A stretch of 64,000 nucleotides of DNA, from IMG/VR virus record IMGVR_UViG_3300046170_000323; one strand, written 5' to 3'. Source of the DNA: a virus. Taxonomy: Duplodnaviria > Caudoviricetes. Shown piece after piece: positions 2,850-10,136 of the stretch (position 1 is the stretch's first letter; every line of letters starts with the position of its first letter). The position numbers were made by a program, and so were the translations under genes. Under the pieces are notes generated by a model that saw only the letters and a program-made list of their open reading frames with translations, was not told the origin of the DNA and searched no databases.

Positions 2850-3155
2850 ATGACACAAGTTGCAGTTATCCACGCCGCCTTCGAAGAAACACCACGTACT
2901 GTTGCGTTGGTAGAAGTCGGTGATCGTAAAGGTACTTCCGCTTTGGAATATGCGTATCGTTGGACACAGAACATCATGGACTCTTGGTCTTTGAAGATGG
3001 AAGCCGATGGTAACGATGCCGTTACTGTTGTCGGTGAACTTCCAGAACACGAAGGTAGAAAGTTTGGTTTGCGTTCGACATCTATGGGTGACCATATGTT
3101 GTTGGGAAACACCAAATACAAAGTTGCAATGGTTGGATTTGAGGAACTTGCATAA
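2850..3155 (+). CDS. Hypothetical protein, YodL-like C-terminus
   Basis: RSTSMGDHMLLG...YKVAMVGFEEL resembles the YodL-family RSLSVxD...GF motif as I recall it; AAGGA RBS. Confidence 0.5.
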   Translation: MTQVAVIHAAFEETPRTVALVEVGDRKGTSALEYAYRWTQNIMDSWSLKMEADGNDAVTVVGELPEHEGRKFGLRSTSMGDHMLLGNTKYKVAMVGFEELA

Positions 3156-3694
3156 TGTCAGAACTTATCAATTATATTGAGGCGCAGAACGCCAAAACTC
3201 AGGTTTGGATGGACGAAGATCCAGACAACCGTTGGGGTGGTATGATTACCACTGATGAAGCCTTCTGGAATGAAGGTGGTATTTTCACAGTCGACGATTA
3301 CGTACGTGATCAGTTGGTCTGTACTATTCGTGAATGCAGTAAAGCTGCATACGGTTCCAAGATCAATCTTGATTGGGACACTTACACCACTTCACAACTT
3401 GAAGAGATGGCAGATGAATATGGTGATGCCGCCTCTCGTCAGTTCGATGAAGACAAAAGAATTGAAGAGGAGAATGTTGCAAAGTTCGAAGGTACTGTTA
3501 CCGAACTTATGACATCTAACTCTGTTGATCGTGAGACAGCGATCCGTTGGTTACTTGAGGCTCAGTGTTTCACTGAGTATGACCTCATGTATGGAGGCAG
3601 TTATGCCTGTTACGATATGAACCTTCCTTACTCGTATGAGAAGGAGTTCAATTCTATTATGTCAACTATGGAACCTGCGAAGGAGGCAGCTTAA
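3155..3694 (+). CDS. Hypothetical acidic protein
   Basis: 179-aa ORF coupled by TAATG. Confidence 0.75.
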   Translation: MSELINYIEAQNAKTQVWMDEDPDNRWGGMITTDEAFWNEGGIFTVDDYVRDQLVCTIRECSKAAYGSKINLDWDTYTTSQLEEMADEYGDAASRQFDEDKRIEEENVAKFEGTVTELMTSNSVDRETAIRWLLEAQCFTEYDLMYGGSYACYDMNLPYSYEKEFNSIMSTMEPAKEAA

Positions 3695-3695
3695 T

Positions 3696-3911
3696 ATGAG
3701 TAATCAACGTAGTGGTAAGTGGAAACCAGCATCGATGAATGATGGGGGTCAGATCAATGAAATGACTCTTGTCACATTCTTCAAATCCGCAAAAGAAGTT
3801 CTTGAACGTGAAGGTCATGAAGACACTGCATTCTATTTTGAACAGTGTGAAGAATGGTTACGTTCGGGTAAAAAAATCACTAGTGACGCTGGAAGGATTC
3901 TTGGTCTATGA
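3696..3911 (+). CDS. Hypothetical protein
   Basis: Start reassigned to ATG 3696 (MSNQRSGKW...), right after the upstream stop and behind an AGGAGG sequence. Confidence 0.65.
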   Translation: MSNQRSGKWKPASMNDGGQINEMTLVTFFKSAKEVLEREGHEDTAFYFEQCEEWLRSGKKITSDAGRILGL

Positions 3912-4081
3912 GTGACTTTTCGGAGTTGGTAGAAAATCTTCGTAAAATGCAAGAACGAGAAGAGATTGAGGGTCTACCCGATTCTGTTCTCGAACTTACA
4001 GGCCAGGCGAAGGAAAAGTTGGACGCACTTGTCAGTGCATACATGAACGATGAGGATGTCGAAAATGGTCAAACCAGCTGA
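3908..4081 (+). CDS. Hypothetical protein (57 aa)
   Basis: MSDFSELVENLRKMQERE...; ATGA overlap with the upstream stop. Confidence 0.55.
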   Translation: MSDFSELVENLRKMQEREEIEGLPDSVLELTGQAKEKLDALVSAYMNDEDVENGQTS

Positions 4082-4322
4082 GGTGGGTACTATAAAGGTA
4101 GAGGATCTCTTCGAAGAAATCGAAGGTGATCCAGACAATGTCATTATGAAACTTCCACCTGTAATAATGGAATCTTTAGGGCTTGACATTGGTGATACTC
4201 TTGTGGTAGAATATGGCACAAATGGTTTGGTACTTCGAAAGAAAGAAGAACATCCCACTAAAGAATATGAAACTGCTCGGGGAAATCTAATAGATAAGAA
4301 CGTCCCACCAGAATTTGATTGA
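4065..4322 (+). CDS. AbrB/MazE/SpoVT-like DNA-binding protein
   Basis: VIMKLPPVIMESLGLDIGDTLVVEYGTNGLVLRKK fits the swapped-hairpin pattern (LP..I...LG...GD.L); GAGGA RBS before ATG 4065. Confidence 0.65.
   Translation: MVKPAEVGTIKVEDLFEEIEGDPDNVIMKLPPVIMESLGLDIGDTLVVEYGTNGLVLRKKEEHPTKEYETARGNLIDKNVPPEFD
4183..4212 (+). promoter_or_regulatory. Sigma70-type promoter P4 embedded in the AbrB-like CDS
   Basis: GGGC-TTGACA-18 nt-TAGAAT with extended TG; shares the GGCTTGACATT core with P1-P3. Confidence 0.5.
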
Positions 4323-4333
4323 GGAGATATATA

Positions 4334-4510
4334 ATGAGTAAAGTTGGACAATGGGTAATGGAGATGCAAGAAGACGCTGCATGGATGCCTAAACCTGTCT
4401 TCGTTCGTAAACATGGTGTTACCCAACAAGATGTTTGGGAACAGATTCAAAAAGAAATGAATGGTGAGTTCCCATACGAACCAGATCCAGAACAGTTCGC
4501 CTATTCTTAA
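4334..4510 (+). CDS. Hypothetical protein
   Basis: GAGGAG RBS; MSKVGQWVMEMQEDA... Confidence 0.7.
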   Translation: MSKVGQWVMEMQEDAAWMPKPVFVRKHGVTQQDVWEQIQKEMNGEFPYEPDPEQFAYS

Positions 4511-5020
4511 ATGTTGGTATCGAATACAGATAGAACCAAATGGGGTTCCTATGGTGATAGGAAAGACTCCTTTGATGATGAAAAGGAAATTGATGCATTC
4601 ATTAGAGGCGTAAAGAAGAACGCCAGTTTGTTGGATCACATTGGTGATGCGGTTGGACGTGAACCAATGCATTTCAGGCCTCACTTCTATGGGCAGTATG
4701 GTGTTGATTTATCTTTAGTCGACGAGAACAACAATCCAGTGGTAGACTTTGAATTTGAAAGATGGTCTGCATGGGATAAAGAGTGGCCTGCGTACTATCG
4801 TCACATTCACTTCCTCGGCCGAAAGAATAAATACTTGCTCGAGGATCGTCCGTTCTTCATGGTTTTCTTGAATTACTCTCGTACGAAATGTCTAGTTGTA
4901 GAAAAAGAAGTTATACTACAGTACCCGACGATCACTAAAAAATTCAAAAAGAAAAACGTGTCAGACAAGGTAAGAGAATTGCCTTTGCATCTGTCTGAAG
5001 GAAGGACTTTTGTGTTATGA
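4511..5020 (+). CDS. PD-(D/E)XK-like nuclease-fold protein
   Basis: GVDLSLVD...VVDFEFER resembles the restriction-endonuclease D...(D/E)xE/K core. Confidence 0.5.
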   Translation: MLVSNTDRTKWGSYGDRKDSFDDEKEIDAFIRGVKKNASLLDHIGDAVGREPMHFRPHFYGQYGVDLSLVDENNNPVVDFEFERWSAWDKEWPAYYRHIHFLGRKNKYLLEDRPFFMVFLNYSRTKCLVVEKEVILQYPTITKKFKKKNVSDKVRELPLHLSEGRTFVL

Positions 5021-5145
5021 AGGATTTGATTTATATCGTCGCTGGGGTGATAACAATAGGTTTGGTAGTTGCACTACTAATGCATATGTGGAGAGACTGT
5101 CTTAATGATCATTCAATATTTACTTGTATGAGGATGCTTCGTTAA
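5017..5145 (+). CDS. Small membrane protein (42 aa)
   Basis: MKDLIYIVAGVITIGLVVALLMHMW...; overlaps both neighbours at their stop/start codons. Confidence 0.55.
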   Translation: MKDLIYIVAGVITIGLVVALLMHMWRDCLNDHSIFTCMRMLR

Positions 5146-5756
5146 TGTTCACCAATTACCATGTAGTTGGGTTACAACGATCTGGTACGAATTGGATACA
5201 CAGATTGATGGAACACAACTTTCCAGATATTCCATGTTACTCAAATCAGGCTCATTGGAAACATCTCACACCATTGGGTATCAATCCAGATTGGGTTGAA
5301 AACAGGCATGGTAAAGAACAGAAAGCGTTTGGATATTTTCCAGGCGCATTTGATCTTCAGAACCTAGAACTTGAAAATCAATCAATTCTGTTTATTGGAA
5401 CACACAAAACGTTGGATGTTTGGAAGGCGTCAATCCGTAGACGGAAAGTTGATTTTATTCAAACTCACAACCACCCAGACAAAGGAGCTGCAAAACATTT
5501 AATGGAAGCATCTTTAAACTGCGTCTGGAATTCTTGGGAAAGTTGGAGACAGGACTCAATGAGTAAACCTAATTTCTATTACAGGGATTACCAAGACTGG
5601 TTCGAAAACTGGAATATATATCTGAGAGATATTCAGAACATCACTGGATGGAAACCATCAACTGCAAAATGGGAAAACGTTGATAAACATACTGTTCCAT
5701 TTTCAAAACAATTTAACCCTAATTTTTATGTAAAAGGAGACAAAAATGTCGTTTGA
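5145..5756 (+). CDS. Sulfotransferase-like (PAPS-binding P-loop) protein
   Basis: N-terminal HVVGLQRSGTNW matches the 5'-PSB loop (xxRSGT); GAGGA RBS before ATG 5145. Confidence 0.6.
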   Translation: MFTNYHVVGLQRSGTNWIHRLMEHNFPDIPCYSNQAHWKHLTPLGINPDWVENRHGKEQKAFGYFPGAFDLQNLELENQSILFIGTHKTLDVWKASIRRRKVDFIQTHNHPDKGAAKHLMEASLNCVWNSWESWRQDSMSKPNFYYRDYQDWFENWNIYLRDIQNITGWKPSTAKWENVDKHTVPFSKQFNPNFYVKGDKNVV

Positions 5757-6006
5757 ATGGCCTCGAATTTATAAATGGGAAGAACGCATCGAATCAGAAG
5801 TTACTGATACGGTTTATGAATATGTGTTCGAACATTATGGTGTTTCAGAGATCACCGAAATTTCCGAAGAACAGATCCGTGAAATTGAAAACTTCCGTGA
5901 TCATGATCTGGGAGAATACTCACCATTCCAAATTGGATTCAGTAATCTAATCAACTCTCACGAATCTGAAATGTGGGAAATGGAAGAGCGTGAAGACGAT
6001 GAGTGA
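5746..6006 (+). CDS. Hypothetical acidic protein
   Basis: 86-aa ORF, AAGGAG RBS. Confidence 0.7.
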   Translation: MSFEWPRIYKWEERIESEVTDTVYEYVFEHYGVSEITEISEEQIREIENFRDHDLGEYSPFQIGFSNLINSHESEMWEMEEREDDE

Positions 6007-6247
6007 TGAACAAGACTTCGATAGTGCTGAGGCAGAAGTCATGTCTTTCATCGAACGTCTCGAACGTTTAGATGAACAGTTACTTGATCTTCGTGGGGAT
6101 GTAAAATCTGTATGCGAAGAAGCAAAGGCACGAGGATACGAACCTAAGATCCTCAAAAAAATTGTATCACTAAGGAAACGTGATGCAGATGACATCGCCA
6201 ATGAAGAGGCGTTGTTGGAAACATATATGAAAGCAATAGGAATGTAA
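5999..6247 (+). CDS. gapR: GapR/DUF2312 (UPF0335) nucleoid-associated DNA-binding protein
   Basis: SFIERLERLDEQ...DVKSVCEEAKARGYEPKILKKIVSLRKRD...EEALLETYMKAIGM matches the GapR consensus (IERIERLEEE...AK..G.D.K..R..I..RK......E...L..Y..ALGM). Confidence 0.9.
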   Translation: MSDEQDFDSAEAEVMSFIERLERLDEQLLDLRGDVKSVCEEAKARGYEPKILKKIVSLRKRDADDIANEEALLETYMKAIGM

Positions 6248-6249
6248 TC

Positions 6250-6621
6250 ATGTCAAAAAAACAGAACACACAGAGACCCATTGGATGGGCAACCACACTA
6301 ACTGAAATTGCAAGTATTCCACGTGATATGTGGGACAGCGTCATGACAATAGAAAAGTCACCACTACGTAATCTAGACCCTATGGTAGGACACATGATCT
6401 TTCAGTGTCTATTCTTTATCTGGAGTGGTATCTTTGCCCTGATGGTAGGAAGTTATCTTGCGTTTGGTATCAGTGCGGCCTTTCACTTACTGCTTATCAG
6501 TGGTATTACAATTACAGTTGTAACATTTCGTCAAGCAGAAAACAATCCAGAATCACTCAACAACATTTTGAAATCAGGCCGTAAATATGACGGACGAGCA
6601 AATGGTGGTGAACACGAATAA
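6250..6621 (+). CDS. Small multi-pass membrane protein of unknown function
   Basis: WDSVM...SPLRNL...MIFQCLFFIWSGIFALMVGSYLAFGISAAFHLLLISGITITVVTF; 2-3 hydrophobic helices. Confidence 0.75.
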   Translation: MSKKQNTQRPIGWATTLTEIASIPRDMWDSVMTIEKSPLRNLDPMVGHMIFQCLFFIWSGIFALMVGSYLAFGISAAFHLLLISGITITVVTFRQAENNPESLNNILKSGRKYDGRANGGEHE

Positions 6622-6773
6622 TGTTTTATGTAGTGAATATAAAGTCTGGTGGCATCATAGATGTCTATGACAGTTTGGGTGAAGCAAGTGAACTTGTTGA
6701 TAAACATCCAGAATGGACGATCATGATAAAATACAATGATCGATCAAGACTTAGAAACAAATATGGAGACTGA
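6621..6773 (+). CDS. Hypothetical protein (50 aa)
   Basis: MFYVVNIKSGGIIDVYDSL...; TAATG coupling. Confidence 0.55.
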   Translation: MFYVVNIKSGGIIDVYDSLGEASELVDKHPEWTIMIKYNDRSRLRNKYGD

Positions 6774-6775
6774 AC

Positions 6776-6946
6776 ATGAGTGAACAAACAAATTATTGCA
6801 CAACCAAAGGTTTGGGTTGGGCATTCTTAGTTGTTGTTTTAATGATTGTTGTTGTACCAGTATTAATGTTAATGTCAATGGTGGGACTTGAAGAATATGG
6901 ACGTTATTGCAATCTCAACATCTTACCTTGCTTTGGTCTGAACTAA
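6776..6946 (+). CDS. Small single-pass membrane protein with three Cys (56 aa)
   Basis: MSEQTNYCTTKGLGWAFLVVVLMIVVVPVLMLMSMVGLEEYGRYCNLNILPCFGLN*; GGAG RBS; missed by the ORF track. Confidence 0.65.
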   Translation: MSEQTNYCTTKGLGWAFLVVVLMIVVVPVLMLMSMVGLEEYGRYCNLNILPCFGLN

Positions 6947-7125
6947 TGCATATCGTTAGAAAAAAATCTGGTGAAATTATTGCAATCGCATCACGATACG
7001 AAGATGCTATTGCAATTGCAGATGGAACACGAATTGATAAAACCGAATACGTAGTTCAAGAGTCAACCGACCAACAAGAACTCGCAGAAGTCTATCGATC
7101 TTATTATGGAACGAGATCACTATGA
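6946..7125 (+). CDS. Hypothetical protein
   Basis: Start reassigned to ATG 6946 (MHIVRKKSGEII...) through TAATG coupling. Confidence 0.65.
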   Translation: MHIVRKKSGEIIAIASRYEDAIAIADGTRIDKTEYVVQESTDQQELAEVYRSYYGTRSL

Positions 7126-7328
7126 CCGATGATGAAGTACGTGCATCCGCTCAGAAAGAAGCGGAGAAAACATTTGAAGGTTTTATATTATGGTCTAAAA
7201 GAACTACCTATGCCTCAATCGCATTCTTATTGATTGTGGCATCGTGTAACTTTGGGGTAGAGGACGACACCTATCCTGCCTATAACGGCGAACAATATAA
7301 TCCGTCCAATCTTAATGTAAAGAAATAA
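7122..7328 (+). CDS. ctaH: aa3-type cytochrome c oxidase subunit IV-like peptide (COX4_pro_2 family)
   Basis: QKEAEKTFEGFILWSKRTTYASIAFLLIVASCN parallels the Rhodobacter/Paracoccus subunit IV pattern (Q)EKTFxGF followed by one TM helix ending near N. Confidence 0.65.
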   Translation: MTDDEVRASAQKEAEKTFEGFILWSKRTTYASIAFLLIVASCNFGVEDDTYPAYNGEQYNPSNLNVKK

Positions 7329-7342
7329 AGATAGGAAACAAA

Positions 7343-7771
7343 ATGAAAAATCTAATTACTGCTAGTCTTATGGCACTTTTCGCAACATCAGCATACGCTG
7401 AAGATATGACTATTGAAATGTTGAATAAACGTGACGATGGTGCAAAGATGGTATACAGTGAAGATATCGCACTTATTGACGTAGGTGATACAATCACGTG
7501 GGTTCCAACTTCAAAAGGACACAATGTAGAATTCATTGCTGGCCCAGATGGATGGGATGCACCAAAGAAATCAAAACTTAATAAAGAAGTGGCAATTACA
7601 TTTGACACGCCAGGCGTTTATCTGTATCAGTGTACACCACACAAGTCAATGGGTATGATTGCCATTGTAGTTGTAGGTGAGTTGACACAAGAAGGTGTTG
7701 ATGCAATTAAAGGTGCCAAAGTAAAAGGCAAATCAAAGAAGAAATTCAAGGGGTTGTTGGCTGATCTATAA
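7343..7771 (+). CDS. paz: Pseudoazurin (type 1 blue copper protein)
   Basis: Sec signal peptide; IEMLNK...MVYSED...VGDTITWVPTSKGHNV; all four Cu ligands present (H in GHNV; C, H and final M in YQCTPHKSMGM); Lys-rich C-terminal helices. Confidence 0.93.
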   Translation: MKNLITASLMALFATSAYAEDMTIEMLNKRDDGAKMVYSEDIALIDVGDTITWVPTSKGHNVEFIAGPDGWDAPKKSKLNKEVAITFDTPGVYLYQCTPHKSMGMIAIVVVGELTQEGVDAIKGAKVKGKSKKKFKGLLADL

Positions 7772-8172
7772 TGAAAAGTTTAGTTGATAAAATACCAGAA
7801 TTTTGTATGAGCCATTGGTTACTTCGTATTCCATTGGCCATCGTATTCCTTCAACAGGGCCTTGATAAATGGCCCGTTGATGCCGCAACTGCAGAGTCTT
7901 TTGCACTCCCATTGATTGTTTGGGTCTTTGTTGTTTACGGTGAACTTGGTTCGGGTGTTGGATTACTTGTTGGTGGAATACTCGCCAACTGGTTCAAAGA
8001 GTTTGGTGATTTGATTACACGATTTAGTGGTATTACAATTTGTAGTATTATGACAGGTGTTATCTGGATCGGCGAACCTGAGAGTTTTATGGATGTAATC
8101 CTGTACGATAACTTCCACGTTCTCTTGTGGGTTGGTGGAATGTTTTTTGCACTGAGAGGTAATAGAACTTGA
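7771..8172 (+). CDS. DoxX family membrane protein
   Basis: LLRIPLAIVFLQQGLDK...GELGSGVGLLVG...TRFSG; about 4 TM helices; TAATG-coupled to pseudoazurin. Confidence 0.8.
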   Translation: MKSLVDKIPEFCMSHWLLRIPLAIVFLQQGLDKWPVDAATAESFALPLIVWVFVVYGELGSGVGLLVGGILANWFKEFGDLITRFSGITICSIMTGVIWIGEPESFMDVILYDNFHVLLWVGGMFFALRGNRT

Positions 8173-8318
8173 TACAATGGTATGACATTGTTGCGGCAAT
8201 AATTTGTTCGTGGTTTATGATGAATTTCTTTTTCGTTCCATTTATCGGCCCTATTCTTGCATATGGAATATATGAGGGATGGGTGCAGGGATATTGTGAA
8301 TATAGAAGGAAGATGTAA
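8169..8318 (+). CDS. Small membrane protein (49 aa)
   Basis: TTG start overlapping the DoxX stop, GAGG RBS; IQWYDIVAAIICSWFMMNFFFVPFIGPILAYGIY. Confidence 0.55.
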   Translation: MIQWYDIVAAIICSWFMMNFFFVPFIGPILAYGIYEGWVQGYCEYRRKM

Positions 8319-8554
8319 TGTACACCGTCGAGTTTGATATGGATGAAGTGGCAATTACAATATTAGACGACACAGGTAATCATGGTGATTTAAAAATTCT
8401 CGCATATGATGACCTCGTCTATATTTGCCAAGAAGATGATGAAAGTGATATACCGAATATATTAGAGATCAATCCTCAGATGTGGGAAGAGTTGATAAAT
8501 GCAATTCATTCTCCAGAAGGAAGTTTTGTTACAGTAAGGAGAAGTGAAAGATGA
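8318..8554 (+). CDS. Hypothetical acidic protein
   Basis: 78-aa ORF, TAATG coupling. Confidence 0.7.
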   Translation: MYTVEFDMDEVAITILDDTGNHGDLKILAYDDLVYICQEDDESDIPNILEINPQMWEELINAIHSPEGSFVTVRRSER

Positions 8555-8730
8555 CAGAAGGCCCATTTCAAGCTGCCTTTGACAGTGATGTTGAAGGTGT
8601 TATACGCAGAGAGATTGTCACATATCGTATGAAGAACGGTATGATGGTAAAGGAATCTGCGTGTCGAGACTATTATGAATCAGGTGATTACCACGATAGT
8701 CAAAACAACATGCCATTAGTTAGTCGATAA
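8551..8730 (+). CDS. Hypothetical protein (59 aa)
   Basis: MTEGPFQAAFDSDVEGVIRRE...; ends at the terminators. Confidence 0.6.
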   Translation: MTEGPFQAAFDSDVEGVIRREIVTYRMKNGMMVKESACRDYYESGDYHDSQNNMPLVSR

Positions 8731-8755
8731 AAAAAGGGAGATCCGAAGATCTCCC
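8729..8755 (-). terminator. Rho-independent terminator for gp23 with C(UUCG)G tetraloop
   Basis: Minus strand GGGAGATC-TTCG-GATCTCCC-T7. Confidence 0.85.
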
Positions 8756-8774
8756 CAAGTCTGGTAGTAAAGTG

Positions 8775-8800
8775 GGGCGGTTATATCCGCCCTTCTTTTT
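8775..8800 (+). terminator. Rho-independent terminator for the plus-strand cassette
   Basis: GGGCGG-TTATAT-CCGCCC-TTCTTTTT. Confidence 0.75.
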
Positions 8801-8807
8801 ATTTGGA

Positions 8808-10136
8808 TCAGAACAAGTTGCTGATGCGAACTCTTCTGTAGTACTGGTTGGTGTTCTGTGTAAGAGCACCCTGTGTTGCAGCAGCAGTACCGTCTGCGAA
8901 TGGGTTCGATACCATACCGTAACGAGTTTTGAACCCGATTTTTGGCTGGAATGAGTTCTCACCCACGGCACGAACCATCTGTAGTGGTACGTATGGGCAG
9001 TAGAACAGACCTGCATCGAATGCAGATGAACCTTTGTATCCAACAACCATGTAGTTTGAACCAGCATATGGATCAATGTACACTCTGTAACGTCCGTTAA
9101 GAACACCAGCGAATGTGTTACCAGTTGTGTCAACTTCCAGTGAGTTGCTGTTAAGAGCAGGAGTGTAATCAAGTACACCTGCCATCTGCAGAGCAGATGC
9201 AACGTCTGAAGAACAGATCACAATGTTACCTTTACCTCTGCGTGTAGCAGTTGCAATTGCGTTTGCTTCCTGTTCGATCTGGAACATCAGACCTTTGAAC
9301 TTCTCAACTGACCAACGTCCGTTTGCGTCAACGTCAAGATCGAAGATACCAGCAGCAGCAGTTGCCGCAGCACCTGCAACAGCAGTACCGTAGATTGTAC
9401 GTACAACTTCACGGTTGATCTCAGTCAGAATTTCTGACTGCAAGATGTTCGCAAGTTCTGTCTCTGCGTCGAGACCGTGAACTGCTTTAAGATCCTGTGC
9501 GAGTTCAGTGGTGTATTCCGCTTTCAACGCACGTGTTTTCGCAGCGACTGTTACTTTCTCGATTGAGAACGCCATCTCTGCAAAGTTGGTTCCGCCACCG
9601 TCACCCAATGCTTCACCAGCGGCAGTGGTCATACCAGTACCAGTGTCAAAGATTGAAGTGTTAGGAACTGCACCACCAGTTGAACCGGCTTCTGCACCTG
9701 CACCTGCGAAGGTAGTGTCTGATTCACCGTGGAATACCTCAGTACCTGACTGAGATGTCTCACGTGAACGCATTGCGAAGATCAGACCAGTTGGGCCTGT
9801 CATTGGCTGTACACCAGCAATGTCATATGCAATCAAGTTTGGCATAGAACGTCTGATCAAAGATACAAGTACTGGATCGTAACCTGCTCCTGGCCCTGCG
9901 TCTGTTGCCGCACCTGTAAATCCGCCATCAGTACCTACATCGTTTGCAGGCGCTTCTGAAAGAAGTGCAGTCATGTTTGCTGAAGCGTCACCCTCTTGGC
10001 GCAGAGCTGACTCTGTGTTTTCAAGGATGGTTGCAGTTACACTTTTACGGTGCTGATCTGCAATTGGTGAAAAAGATTCGTGCTCAAGGATTGGGCCCCA
10101 CTTTTCCACAAGTTTTTGATAGTTTGACTGTGTCAT
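8808..10136 (-). CDS. gp23: Major capsid protein
   Basis: LVEKWGPIL, YDPVLVSLIRRSMPNLIAYDIAGVQPMTGPTGLIFAMR, RALKAEYTTELAQDLKAVHGLDAE, YCPYVPLQM, GFKTRYG. Confidence 0.99.
   Translation of the reverse strand: MTQSNYQKLVEKWGPILEHESFSPIADQHRKSVTATILENTESALRQEGDASANMTALLSEAPANDVGTDGGFTGAATDAGPGAGYDPVLVSLIRRSMPNLIAYDIAGVQPMTGPTGLIFAMRSRETSQSGTEVFHGESDTTFAGAGAEAGSTGGAVPNTSIFDTGTGMTTAAGEALGDGGGTNFAEMAFSIEKVTVAAKTRALKAEYTTELAQDLKAVHGLDAETELANILQSEILTEINREVVRTIYGTAVAGAAATAAAGIFDLDVDANGRWSVEKFKGLMFQIEQEANAIATATRRGKGNIVICSSDVASALQMAGVLDYTPALNSNSLEVDTTGNTFAGVLNGRYRVYIDPYAGSNYMVVGYKGSSAFDAGLFYCPYVPLQMVRAVGENSFQPKIGFKTRYGMVSNPFADGTAAATQGALTQNTNQYYRRVRISNLF

Follow-up and report, generated by a model that had tools for sequence, protein, structure and literature searches.

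Why would a marine phage carry genes that appear to belong to a bacterial respiratory chain? The question is raised by a 64,000-nucleotide stretch of viral DNA (IMG/VR record IMGVR_UViG_3300046170_000323; Duplodnaviria, Caudoviricetes), the whole of which we refer to as the window. Three adjacent genes on one strand encode a 68-amino-acid peptide resembling subunit IV of the aa3 oxidase, a pseudoazurin and a membrane protein of the DoxX family. A preliminary description of this DNA, made without database searches, proposed that the three products supply a respiratory shunt from the membrane through a copper carrier to the terminal oxidase, and recorded a coupled gene for a 49-amino-acid membrane peptide behind them. 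Comparison with related phages shows that the three genes occur together in many variants, come and go as one unit and evolve under purifying selection. We judge it likely that they serve electron transfer in respiration, in the periplasm or the membrane. They would most probably sustain or divert the respiration of the infected cell, much as the photosynthesis genes of cyanophages act in their own hosts, and so form a counterpart to these genes in a phage of heterotrophs. The route that the electrons would take is a separate and less certain matter, which we weigh below against other explanations.

Three genes that travel together

Linkage was assessed in 47 distinct IMG/VR variants with at least 2 kilobases (kb) of flanking sequence on either side. 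All three genes lie within 1.03–1.94 kb in 23 of these variants, always in the same orientation and in four different orders, and two of the three genes are present in another 14. Persistence of linkage through reshuffled orders is a mark of functional coupling. The preliminary description had made its proposal depend on co-occurrence of the genes in related phages, and the proposal survives this comparison: the genes co-occur widely, with their order shuffled. The trio is also lost as a whole. Contigs from RNA libraries of three studies join position 7094 of the window to position 8153, leaving a gap of 1058 nucleotides (nt) that corresponds exactly to the three genes and placing the upstream gene beside the open reading frame (ORF) for the 49-residue peptide. 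Because these contigs omit exactly the trio, it behaves as one insertion-deletion cassette. Ratios of nonsynonymous to synonymous change (dN/dS) of 0.03–0.22 across the trio denote purifying selection; among comparisons without saturated synonymous change, the values are 0.03 for DoxX, whose phage copies are 67–81% identical to one another, 0.07–0.11 for closer pairs of pseudoazurin and 0.11–0.22 for the 68-residue peptide.

The ORF map of the window bears out the four coupled, same-strand ORFs of the earlier account, including the TAATG that links the stop of the pseudoazurin gene to the start of the DoxX gene. The start ATG of the 68-residue peptide gene overlaps the stop of an upstream 72-residue ORF (ATGA), and the pseudoazurin ORF begins 14 nt past the stop of the peptide ORF. 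The TTG start of the 49-residue ORF overlaps the DoxX stop, and TAATG leads from this ORF into the next one at 8318.

Pseudoazurin is not the only carrier that accompanies DoxX. In four distinct phage variants, none of which encodes pseudoazurin, the DoxX gene overlaps or abuts a gene for a secreted class I cytochrome c (PF00034, E ~1e-10), and both gene orders occur. The phage cytochromes contain a C-x-x-C-H site and a G-T-K-M-N-F methionine region and have isoelectric points of 8.9–9.7. In L122–L125, the order is DoxX, cytochrome c, a 123-residue membrane protein and the subunit-IV-like peptide; L124 is T4-like and encodes a T4-type gp32 and a baseplate hub. Another of these loci, L099, lies on a 300-kb contig labelled viral that has one phage-family match only; its phage nature is unsure and we do not rely on it. 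Copper and haem carriers that swap in the same slot have periplasmic one-electron transfer as their common trait, not copper handling, and the swap argues for an electron-transfer role. In two other variants, which lack DoxX and the 68-residue peptide, the gene directly upstream of pseudoazurin encodes an alternative oxidase (AOX; PF01786, E 1.9e-79; L009:4152-4742 and L023:4371-4982), a pairing that mirrors PTOX and plastocyanin in cyanophages.

Identity and origin of the proteins

The earlier assignment of the three products to subunit-IV-like, pseudoazurin and DoxX families holds in comparisons with Pfam, PDB, NCBIfam and Foldseek. The 142-residue protein matches PF00127 with an E value of 1.5e-15. 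Its best PDB match is 1bqk (E 1.8e-26), which covers residues 21–140 of 142, and the top 22 matches are all pseudoazurin structures, with E values from 1.8e-26 to 2e-19. Amicyanin and plastocyanin give far weaker matches that end at 104–111, whereas the alignment to pseudoazurin reaches residue 140 and thus includes the C-terminal helical extension that distinguishes pseudoazurin from these two proteins. TIGR02375 is the best NCBIfam model by 60 bits, yet its score of 106.7 marginally misses the cut-off of 109.85. The copper ligands His60, Cys97, His100 and Met105 do not vary among 15 sequences from phages and bacteria and align to the ligands of 1bqk; the spacing Cys-Thr-Pro-His-x-x-Met-Gly-Met is present, as is an evident signal peptide that ends in AYA. 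Judged by these hallmarks of its sequence, the gene product is a true, intact and secreted pseudoazurin. A role in denitrification was rejected: in no locus is a nitrite or nitrous oxide reductase gene linked, so the acceptor of the protein is probably not a denitrification enzyme.

The DoxX protein scores 28.5 bits against PF07681 (cut-off 23.6). Its AlphaFold2 model is a four-helix membrane bundle with a predicted local distance difference test (pLDDT) score of 90.1. Foldseek matches this model to CatD, YqjF, MhqP and YphA at a probability of 1.0, with a template-modelling (TM) score of 0.71 to CatD, and further to MauE, the small subunit of Gluconobacter glycerol dehydrogenase and Acidianus DoxD, the overall probability being 0.9–1.0. 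These relatives by fold include membrane subunits that are annotated as quinone-linked, namely DoxD of the Acidianus thiosulfate dehydrogenase [quinone] and the Gluconobacter small subunit. The top match among PDB structures is NACHO/TMEM35A (Z 10.6), which we take to be annotated as a DoxX-family protein; a search of PDB sequences with a DoxX profile returned nothing meaningful. Two periplasmic loops, placed by the positive-inside rule, are acidic, with net charges of -2 and -4. None of the seven proteins encoded within 6250–8554 matches the profile of the DoxA-type small subunit. Public annotation of the protein clusters of the cassette reads "hypothetical protein" or "putative oxidoreductase" only. 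On one large phage-like contig (L141:8001-13081), DoxX occurs alone beside matches to RuBisCO_large, thiolase, AMP-binding and radical SAM, which make up a metabolic gene cluster of a different and unusual kind.

The 68-residue peptide scores 25.9 bits against the Pfam family COX4_pro_2, for which the cut-off is 22, and 10 of 18 phage relatives of the peptide match this family at E<0.01. A search of the PDB with the single sequence gave no match; a profile of the phage peptides gave six, of which five are subunit IV chains, all weakly matched (1qle_D, E 0.15; 1m56_D, E 1.5). The peptide has a single helix, and its N-terminal part and helix resemble subunit IV of the aa3 oxidase. The phage peptide has the motif E-K-T-F-x-G-F, which recurs in the sole subunit IV gene that one Rhodobacteraceae genome contains. 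After the helix, the phage peptides have a near-invariant cysteine in a lipobox-like motif (V-A-S-C or V-V-G-C), which is followed by a conserved, acidic periplasmic tail of 27 residues that contains Y-N-G-E-Q-Y-x-P-x-N-L and has a net charge of -2. A search of 301 alphaproteobacterial genomes did not find the tail; three weak matches to the peptide in these genomes cover the N-terminal and helix part only (profile positions 7–38). On this ground, the tailed form of the peptide looks phage-specific.

Bacterial homologues exist for all three genes, and the cassette consists of host-derived genes within a bona fide phage genome. Relatives of DoxX with 42–73% identity occur in SAR116, Rhodobacteraceae, a metagenome-assembled genome (MAG) of Pelagibacterales, OM43/Methylopumilus, Polynucleobacter and other Betaproteobacteria. 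In a tree of DoxX, bacterial sequences cluster by taxon and 38 of 50 phage sequences fall into one weakly supported group. The label changes between phage and bacterium 4 times on this tree, compared with 35.5 times in shuffles; so few changes point to long residence in phages and not to repeated recent capture. Each of four alphaproteobacterial genomes that were checked has its own pseudoazurin (48–55% identity) and one subunit IV gene, and these are unlinked. SAR116, Rhodobacteraceae and the Pelagibacterales MAG, in which all three genes are present but scattered, are candidate hosts by gene content. Since the host genes are dispersed, the phage module brings together functions that hosts encode at scattered places, as is the case in cyanophages. 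The preliminary description had named Rhodobacterales homologues for comparison, but a host in this group is not established: homologues are also found in SAR116 and the Pelagibacterales MAG, and those of DoxX in Betaproteobacteria as well.

Next to bacterial DoxX genes, a subunit-IV-like peptide was looked for and not found, and pseudoazurin is present in two cases only (L158 and L178). The one clear bacterial counterpart of part of the cassette is L158:8001-9002, which lies on the complete Rhodobacteraceae chromosome nBUS_22. There, a gene for a pseudoazurin with 50% identity to that of the phage comes directly after DoxX, and a homologue of the 123-residue membrane protein is encoded 7 kb upstream. 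Bacterial DoxX mostly stands alone among generic neighbours, which include ABC transporters, short-chain dehydrogenases and epimerases. In seven Rhodobacteraceae-type loci (L151:8001-8591, L152:8001-8986 and five others), DoxX is followed after ~30 nt by a single-helix peptide of 46–51 amino acids and then by a 129-residue DUF4149 protein; DoxX and this peptide may be a unit comparable to the phage pairing.

A possible electron route and its rivals

How might the three products work together? DoxX would be the membrane partner on the quinone side and would draw electrons from the ubiquinol pool, passing them to a soluble carrier. Whether pseudoazurin, as in the window, or cytochrome c, as in other phages, this carrier would hand the electrons to the host aa3 oxidase, in which the phage peptide would replace the small subunit IV. 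The acidic tail of the peptide may aid docking of the carrier; together with the acidic loops of DoxX, it would offer the type of surface on which lysine-rich carriers dock. Such a path would keep the quinone pool oxidised and maintain respiration while host gene expression shuts down, and haem iron would not be needed on the route when the copper carrier is used. The potentials of pseudoazurin and cytochrome c lie far above that of ubiquinone, so the downhill direction is from quinol to carrier. For a c2/c550-type cytochrome in aerobic Alphaproteobacteria, the usual acceptor is the terminal oxidase. Combined with the quinone-linked kin of DoxX and the acidic surfaces, these properties suggest a path from ubiquinol through DoxX and the carrier to the aa3 oxidase. 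With its full wiring, the trio would be a cassette of host-derived auxiliary genes for respiratory electron transfer in uncultured marine T4-like phages, a reading that we hold tentatively and to which we give slightly less than an even chance. A bolder extension, which we regard as unlikely, is that the DoxX subfamily, alone or with the peptide, constitutes a minimal quinol:cupredoxin/cytochrome c oxidoreductase that has neither haem nor iron-sulfur centres. This enzyme would provide a hitherto unrecognised bypass of bc1 in abundant marine and freshwater bacteria, and phages would have packaged it with a carrier and a modified oxidase subunit as a portable respiratory branch.

Several observations weigh against the ubiquinol-to-oxidase route. 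The module is not obligate: 10 of the 47 variants have a single gene, and near-identical relatives of the window (L005–L008 and the nearest viral record, G001) lack DoxX only, with G001 retaining the 68-residue peptide and pseudoazurin. The match of the peptide to subunit IV is short, extending over ~30 residues, and solved chains are matched at E 0.15–1.5. The conserved tail and cysteine are absent from real subunit IV; solved chains stop at the helix, where the phage peptide continues for 27 residues, and the phage peptide may be something other than an oxidase subunit. The unrelated neighbours of bacterial DoxX mean that the host context lends no support to a respiratory role. We know of no DoxX protein shown to oxidise quinol and to reduce a cupredoxin or cytochrome c, and DoxX has, to our knowledge, no known redox cofactor. 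RNA libraries of separate studies contain contigs with relatives of the pseudoazurin and DoxX genes; these contigs may include carried-over DNA, which leaves transcription unproven, and contig depth cannot rank expression. When DoxX, mature pseudoazurin and the peptide were co-folded, the peptide scored 0.00, which speaks neither for nor against binding.

Electron transfer could also be wired in another way, although we consider this somewhat unlikely. Instead of joining the oxidase, the small peptide would then be anchored in the membrane, possibly with a lipid modification, and would partner either DoxX or the carrier. Peptide and DoxX would form a stand-alone quinol:carrier oxidoreductase, in which the peptide is comparable to the small subunit of DoxD/DoxA enzymes, and the carrier would serve any host acceptor. 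The lipobox-like motif and the 27-residue tail that set the peptide apart from real subunit IV and from the 301 genomes agree with such an arrangement, as do five variants that have the peptide with DoxX but without pseudoazurin. The seven Rhodobacteraceae-type loci likewise pair DoxX with a peptide of the same architecture, in which a polar N-terminal helix precedes the membrane helix. The bacterial 46-residue peptide, however, has no detectable sequence relation to the phage peptide, which exceeds the COX4_pro_2 cut-off and finds its best matches among solved structures in subunit IV chains. Five variants have the peptide with pseudoazurin but without DoxX, although a host DoxX could serve in these. 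Lipid modification itself sits awkwardly with the position of the cysteine at residue 42, deeper than in usual lipoprotein signals, and with conservation of the part that would be cleaved.

A role outside energy metabolism would be that of an envelope module against redox or copper stress, in which the carrier donates to a peroxidase of the periplasm or to some other enzyme of detoxification. The part played by DoxX would then resemble that in the mycobacterial DoxX-SseA-SodA complex, which serves thiol and radical detoxification, or in the copper-induced buf/GIG operons, and would shield the infected cell from oxidative damage. Cytochrome c peroxidase of Paracoccus accepts electrons from both pseudoazurin and cytochrome c550, and the carrier swap is therefore compatible with this role as well. 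A rubrerythrin-like or nitroreductase gene stands near the cassette in some phage contigs, and copper-responsive bufferin/GIG operons contain DoxX genes that are annotated as putative oxidoreductases only (PMC11626156). Nevertheless, the conserved set contains no gene for a peroxidase, superoxide dismutase, sulfurtransferase or bufferin, its third member resembles a subunit of a terminal oxidase and its recurrent extra neighbour, the alternative oxidase, is a respiratory enzyme. Moreover, DoxX is dispensable for copper protection in the bufferin operon of Caulobacter, a finding that also counts against the respiratory route (PMC11626156). We rate the stress module as distinctly unlikely. A chance gathering of unrelated host-derived genes, with no functional coupling, strikes us as very improbable. 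The region is hypervariable, a patchwork of small genes in which insertions and deletions are frequent; single-gene variants occur, and the bacterial homologues are not adjacent. Chance would nonetheless have to account for a trio that remains adjacent and co-oriented within 2 kb through four orders in 23 of 47 variants, that is lost as a single unit and in which a functionally equivalent carrier takes the place of pseudoazurin.

Phage setting and relation to known systems

The window belongs to a T4-like myovirus. Its major capsid protein shares 65% identity with its counterparts in the Sinorhizobium phages phiM12 and phiN3 and 63.5% with the one in the OM43 phage Melnitz; a long structural block extends beyond the capsid gene, so that T4-like capsid and structural genes flank the cassette (Table 1). 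DNA of this phage is found in seawater and estuary samples from more than 12 studies. The + strand from ~4.2 to 8.8 kb is a series of small, mainly overlapping genes. Near the start of this block lies the best match to a sigma-70-type promoter within 3000–9000, which consists of TTGACA, 18 nt and TAGAAT, with TG, and agrees with the consensus at 11 of 12 positions. The T4-type late motif TATAAATA occurs ten times in the window, each time on the - strand, and none of 100 shuffles gave ten. Given this promoter-like site near the start of the block and all late motifs on the opposite strand, the cassette looks like part of an early-type transcription unit. In the structural region, 25810–57804 on the - strand contains ORFs of 2256, 1046, 2025, 1024 and 3764 amino acids, which are unusually long for a T4-like phage.

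Table 1. Features of the cassette and its surroundings; positions refer to the window unless a locus in another contig is named (aa, amino acids)
Feature	Position	Strand	Basis or remark
68-aa subunit-IV-like peptide	7122-7328	+	COX4_pro_2 match
Pseudoazurin precursor, 142 aa	7343-7771	+	Copper-bind (PF00127) match
DoxX-family inner-membrane protein, 133 aa, four helices	7771-8172	+	PF07681 match
49-aa hydrophobic peptide	8169-8318	+	ORF; TTG start; matches no family
123-aa two-helix membrane protein, family unassigned	6250-6621	+	Recurrent cassette neighbour, possible fourth component
Sigma-70-like promoter, candidate early promoter of the gene block of the cassette	4183-4212	+	Consensus match only
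Terminator-like hairpin closing the + strand block	8774-8793	+	Opposes capsid-gene terminator 8756-8735 (- strand)
gp23-type major capsid protein	8808-10136	-	Identity to T4-like phage capsids
DoxX-cytochrome c units	L091:4998-5764, L099:4643-5402, L111:4818-5818, L124:5004-6498		L124 includes 123-aa protein and peptide

Several small proteins are encoded around the trio. The 49-residue peptide, which the preliminary description noted behind the trio, is not a member of the module: the peptide is present in seven loci only, all of them nearest relatives of the window, and falls outside the conserved set. In relatives without DoxX (L005–L008 and L144), it directly follows pseudoazurin. The 123-residue membrane protein is present in 17 of the 47 variants and, in L124, lies between cytochrome c and the subunit-IV-like peptide. 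It has no Pfam or NCBIfam match, and its Atlas neighbours are solely viral hypothetical proteins. Bacterial homologues are encoded within ~1.7 kb of DoxX in L176, L187, L207 and L191; loci of Polynucleobacter, Polaromonas and Puniceispirillum are among those with a homologue near DoxX, and the C-terminal G-R-A-N-G-G-E-H-E is identical between the phage and Puniceispirillum copies. A soluble protein of 59–89 amino acids with the motif M-K-P-N-T-K-F, which matches no family, recurs after pseudoazurin or DoxX in several phage variants (L002:5435-5614, L009:5429-5611, L073:5878-6147 and L137:8408-8632). The motif is N-terminal in three of these four loci and internal in the longer ORF of L073. Contigs of two RNA-library runs join 6608 to 6771 and thereby omit a 50-residue ORF (6621–6773); since 6609–6770 is missing from them, this ORF, too, is a presence-absence variant.

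The cassette is common. A relative of this pseudoazurin is encoded on 336 IMG/VR stretches, a narrower scan of IMG/VR for DoxX returned 61 stretches, and metagenomes hold thousands of relatives of the other two products (>3,500 of DoxX and ~1,600 of the 68-residue peptide). The earlier statement that no such phage system had been described agrees with our searches: 50,697 deposited phage genomes gave no protein-level match for pseudoazurin or DoxX and no nucleotide match for 6900–8600, and we found no paper linking pseudoazurin, cupredoxins, DoxX or oxidase subunit IV with phages. Descriptions of pelagimyophages and of Melnitz make no mention of these genes. Phage takeover of host energy metabolism is well documented in cyanophages; for phages that infect heterotrophic marine bacteria, our searches turned up no account of a respiratory equivalent. 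If the ubiquinol-to-oxidase route is correct, an appreciable fraction of infected marine bacteria would depend in part on virus-encoded components for respiration, with consequences in the surface ocean for oxygen consumption, carbon remineralisation and the economy of iron versus copper. The swap of pseudoazurin and cytochrome c would also provide a first concrete, testable hypothesis on the partner of a large, uncharacterised DoxX subfamily.

Among known phage systems, the petE, PTOX and petF genes of cyanophages are comparable in that T4-like marine phages again carry a host-derived soluble cupredoxin. A di-iron quinol oxidase is sometimes adjacent in both cases, PTOX in cyanophages and AOX in L009 and L023. 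Cyanophage plastocyanin has been proposed to donate electrons to cytochrome oxidase, not to photosystem I, alongside PTOX (PMC5083919). Unlike the cyanophage genes, the cassette described here encodes pseudoazurin and not plastocyanin (PHROG petE is matched at E 3e-7, compared with E 1.8e-26 for 1bqk), has its bacterial homologues in heterotrophic Alpha- and Betaproteobacteria and partners the carrier with DoxX and a subunit-IV-like peptide.

Each component also differs from its closest characterised counterpart. The pseudoazurin has the full mature length, ligand spacing and signal peptide of its bacterial equivalents (Achromobacter cycloclastes 1bqk and Paracoccus 1adw), from which it is set apart by being phage-encoded, by a conserved C-terminal G-K-S-K-K-K and by a score just under the TIGR02375 cut-off. 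The peptide shares with subunit IV of the aa3 oxidase (chain D of Paracoccus 1qle and of Rhodobacter 1m56) a polar N-terminus with E-K-T-F-x-G-F and one membrane helix, to which it adds, unlike the solved subunits that end at the helix, the cysteine and the acidic 27-residue tail. Phage DoxX has the four-helix fold of the DoxX/DoxD family (Acidianus DoxD, Bacillus CatD/MhqP, E. coli YqjF/YphA, Gluconobacter SldB and MauE). In contrast to the Acidianus thiosulfate:quinone oxidoreductase, it has no DoxA-type partner, and it differs from the family at large in being paired with pseudoazurin or cytochrome c, soluble carriers of high potential; we know of no characterised DoxX system with such a partner. 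It belongs to a sharply conserved subfamily that is common to marine SAR116, Rhodobacteraceae and OM43 and to freshwater Betaproteobacteria. Auxiliary electron-transport genes of phages are already known from cyanophages; what is new here is this combination of genes, its respiratory setting in phages whose bacterial homologues belong to heterotrophs, and the coupling of DoxX to a carrier.

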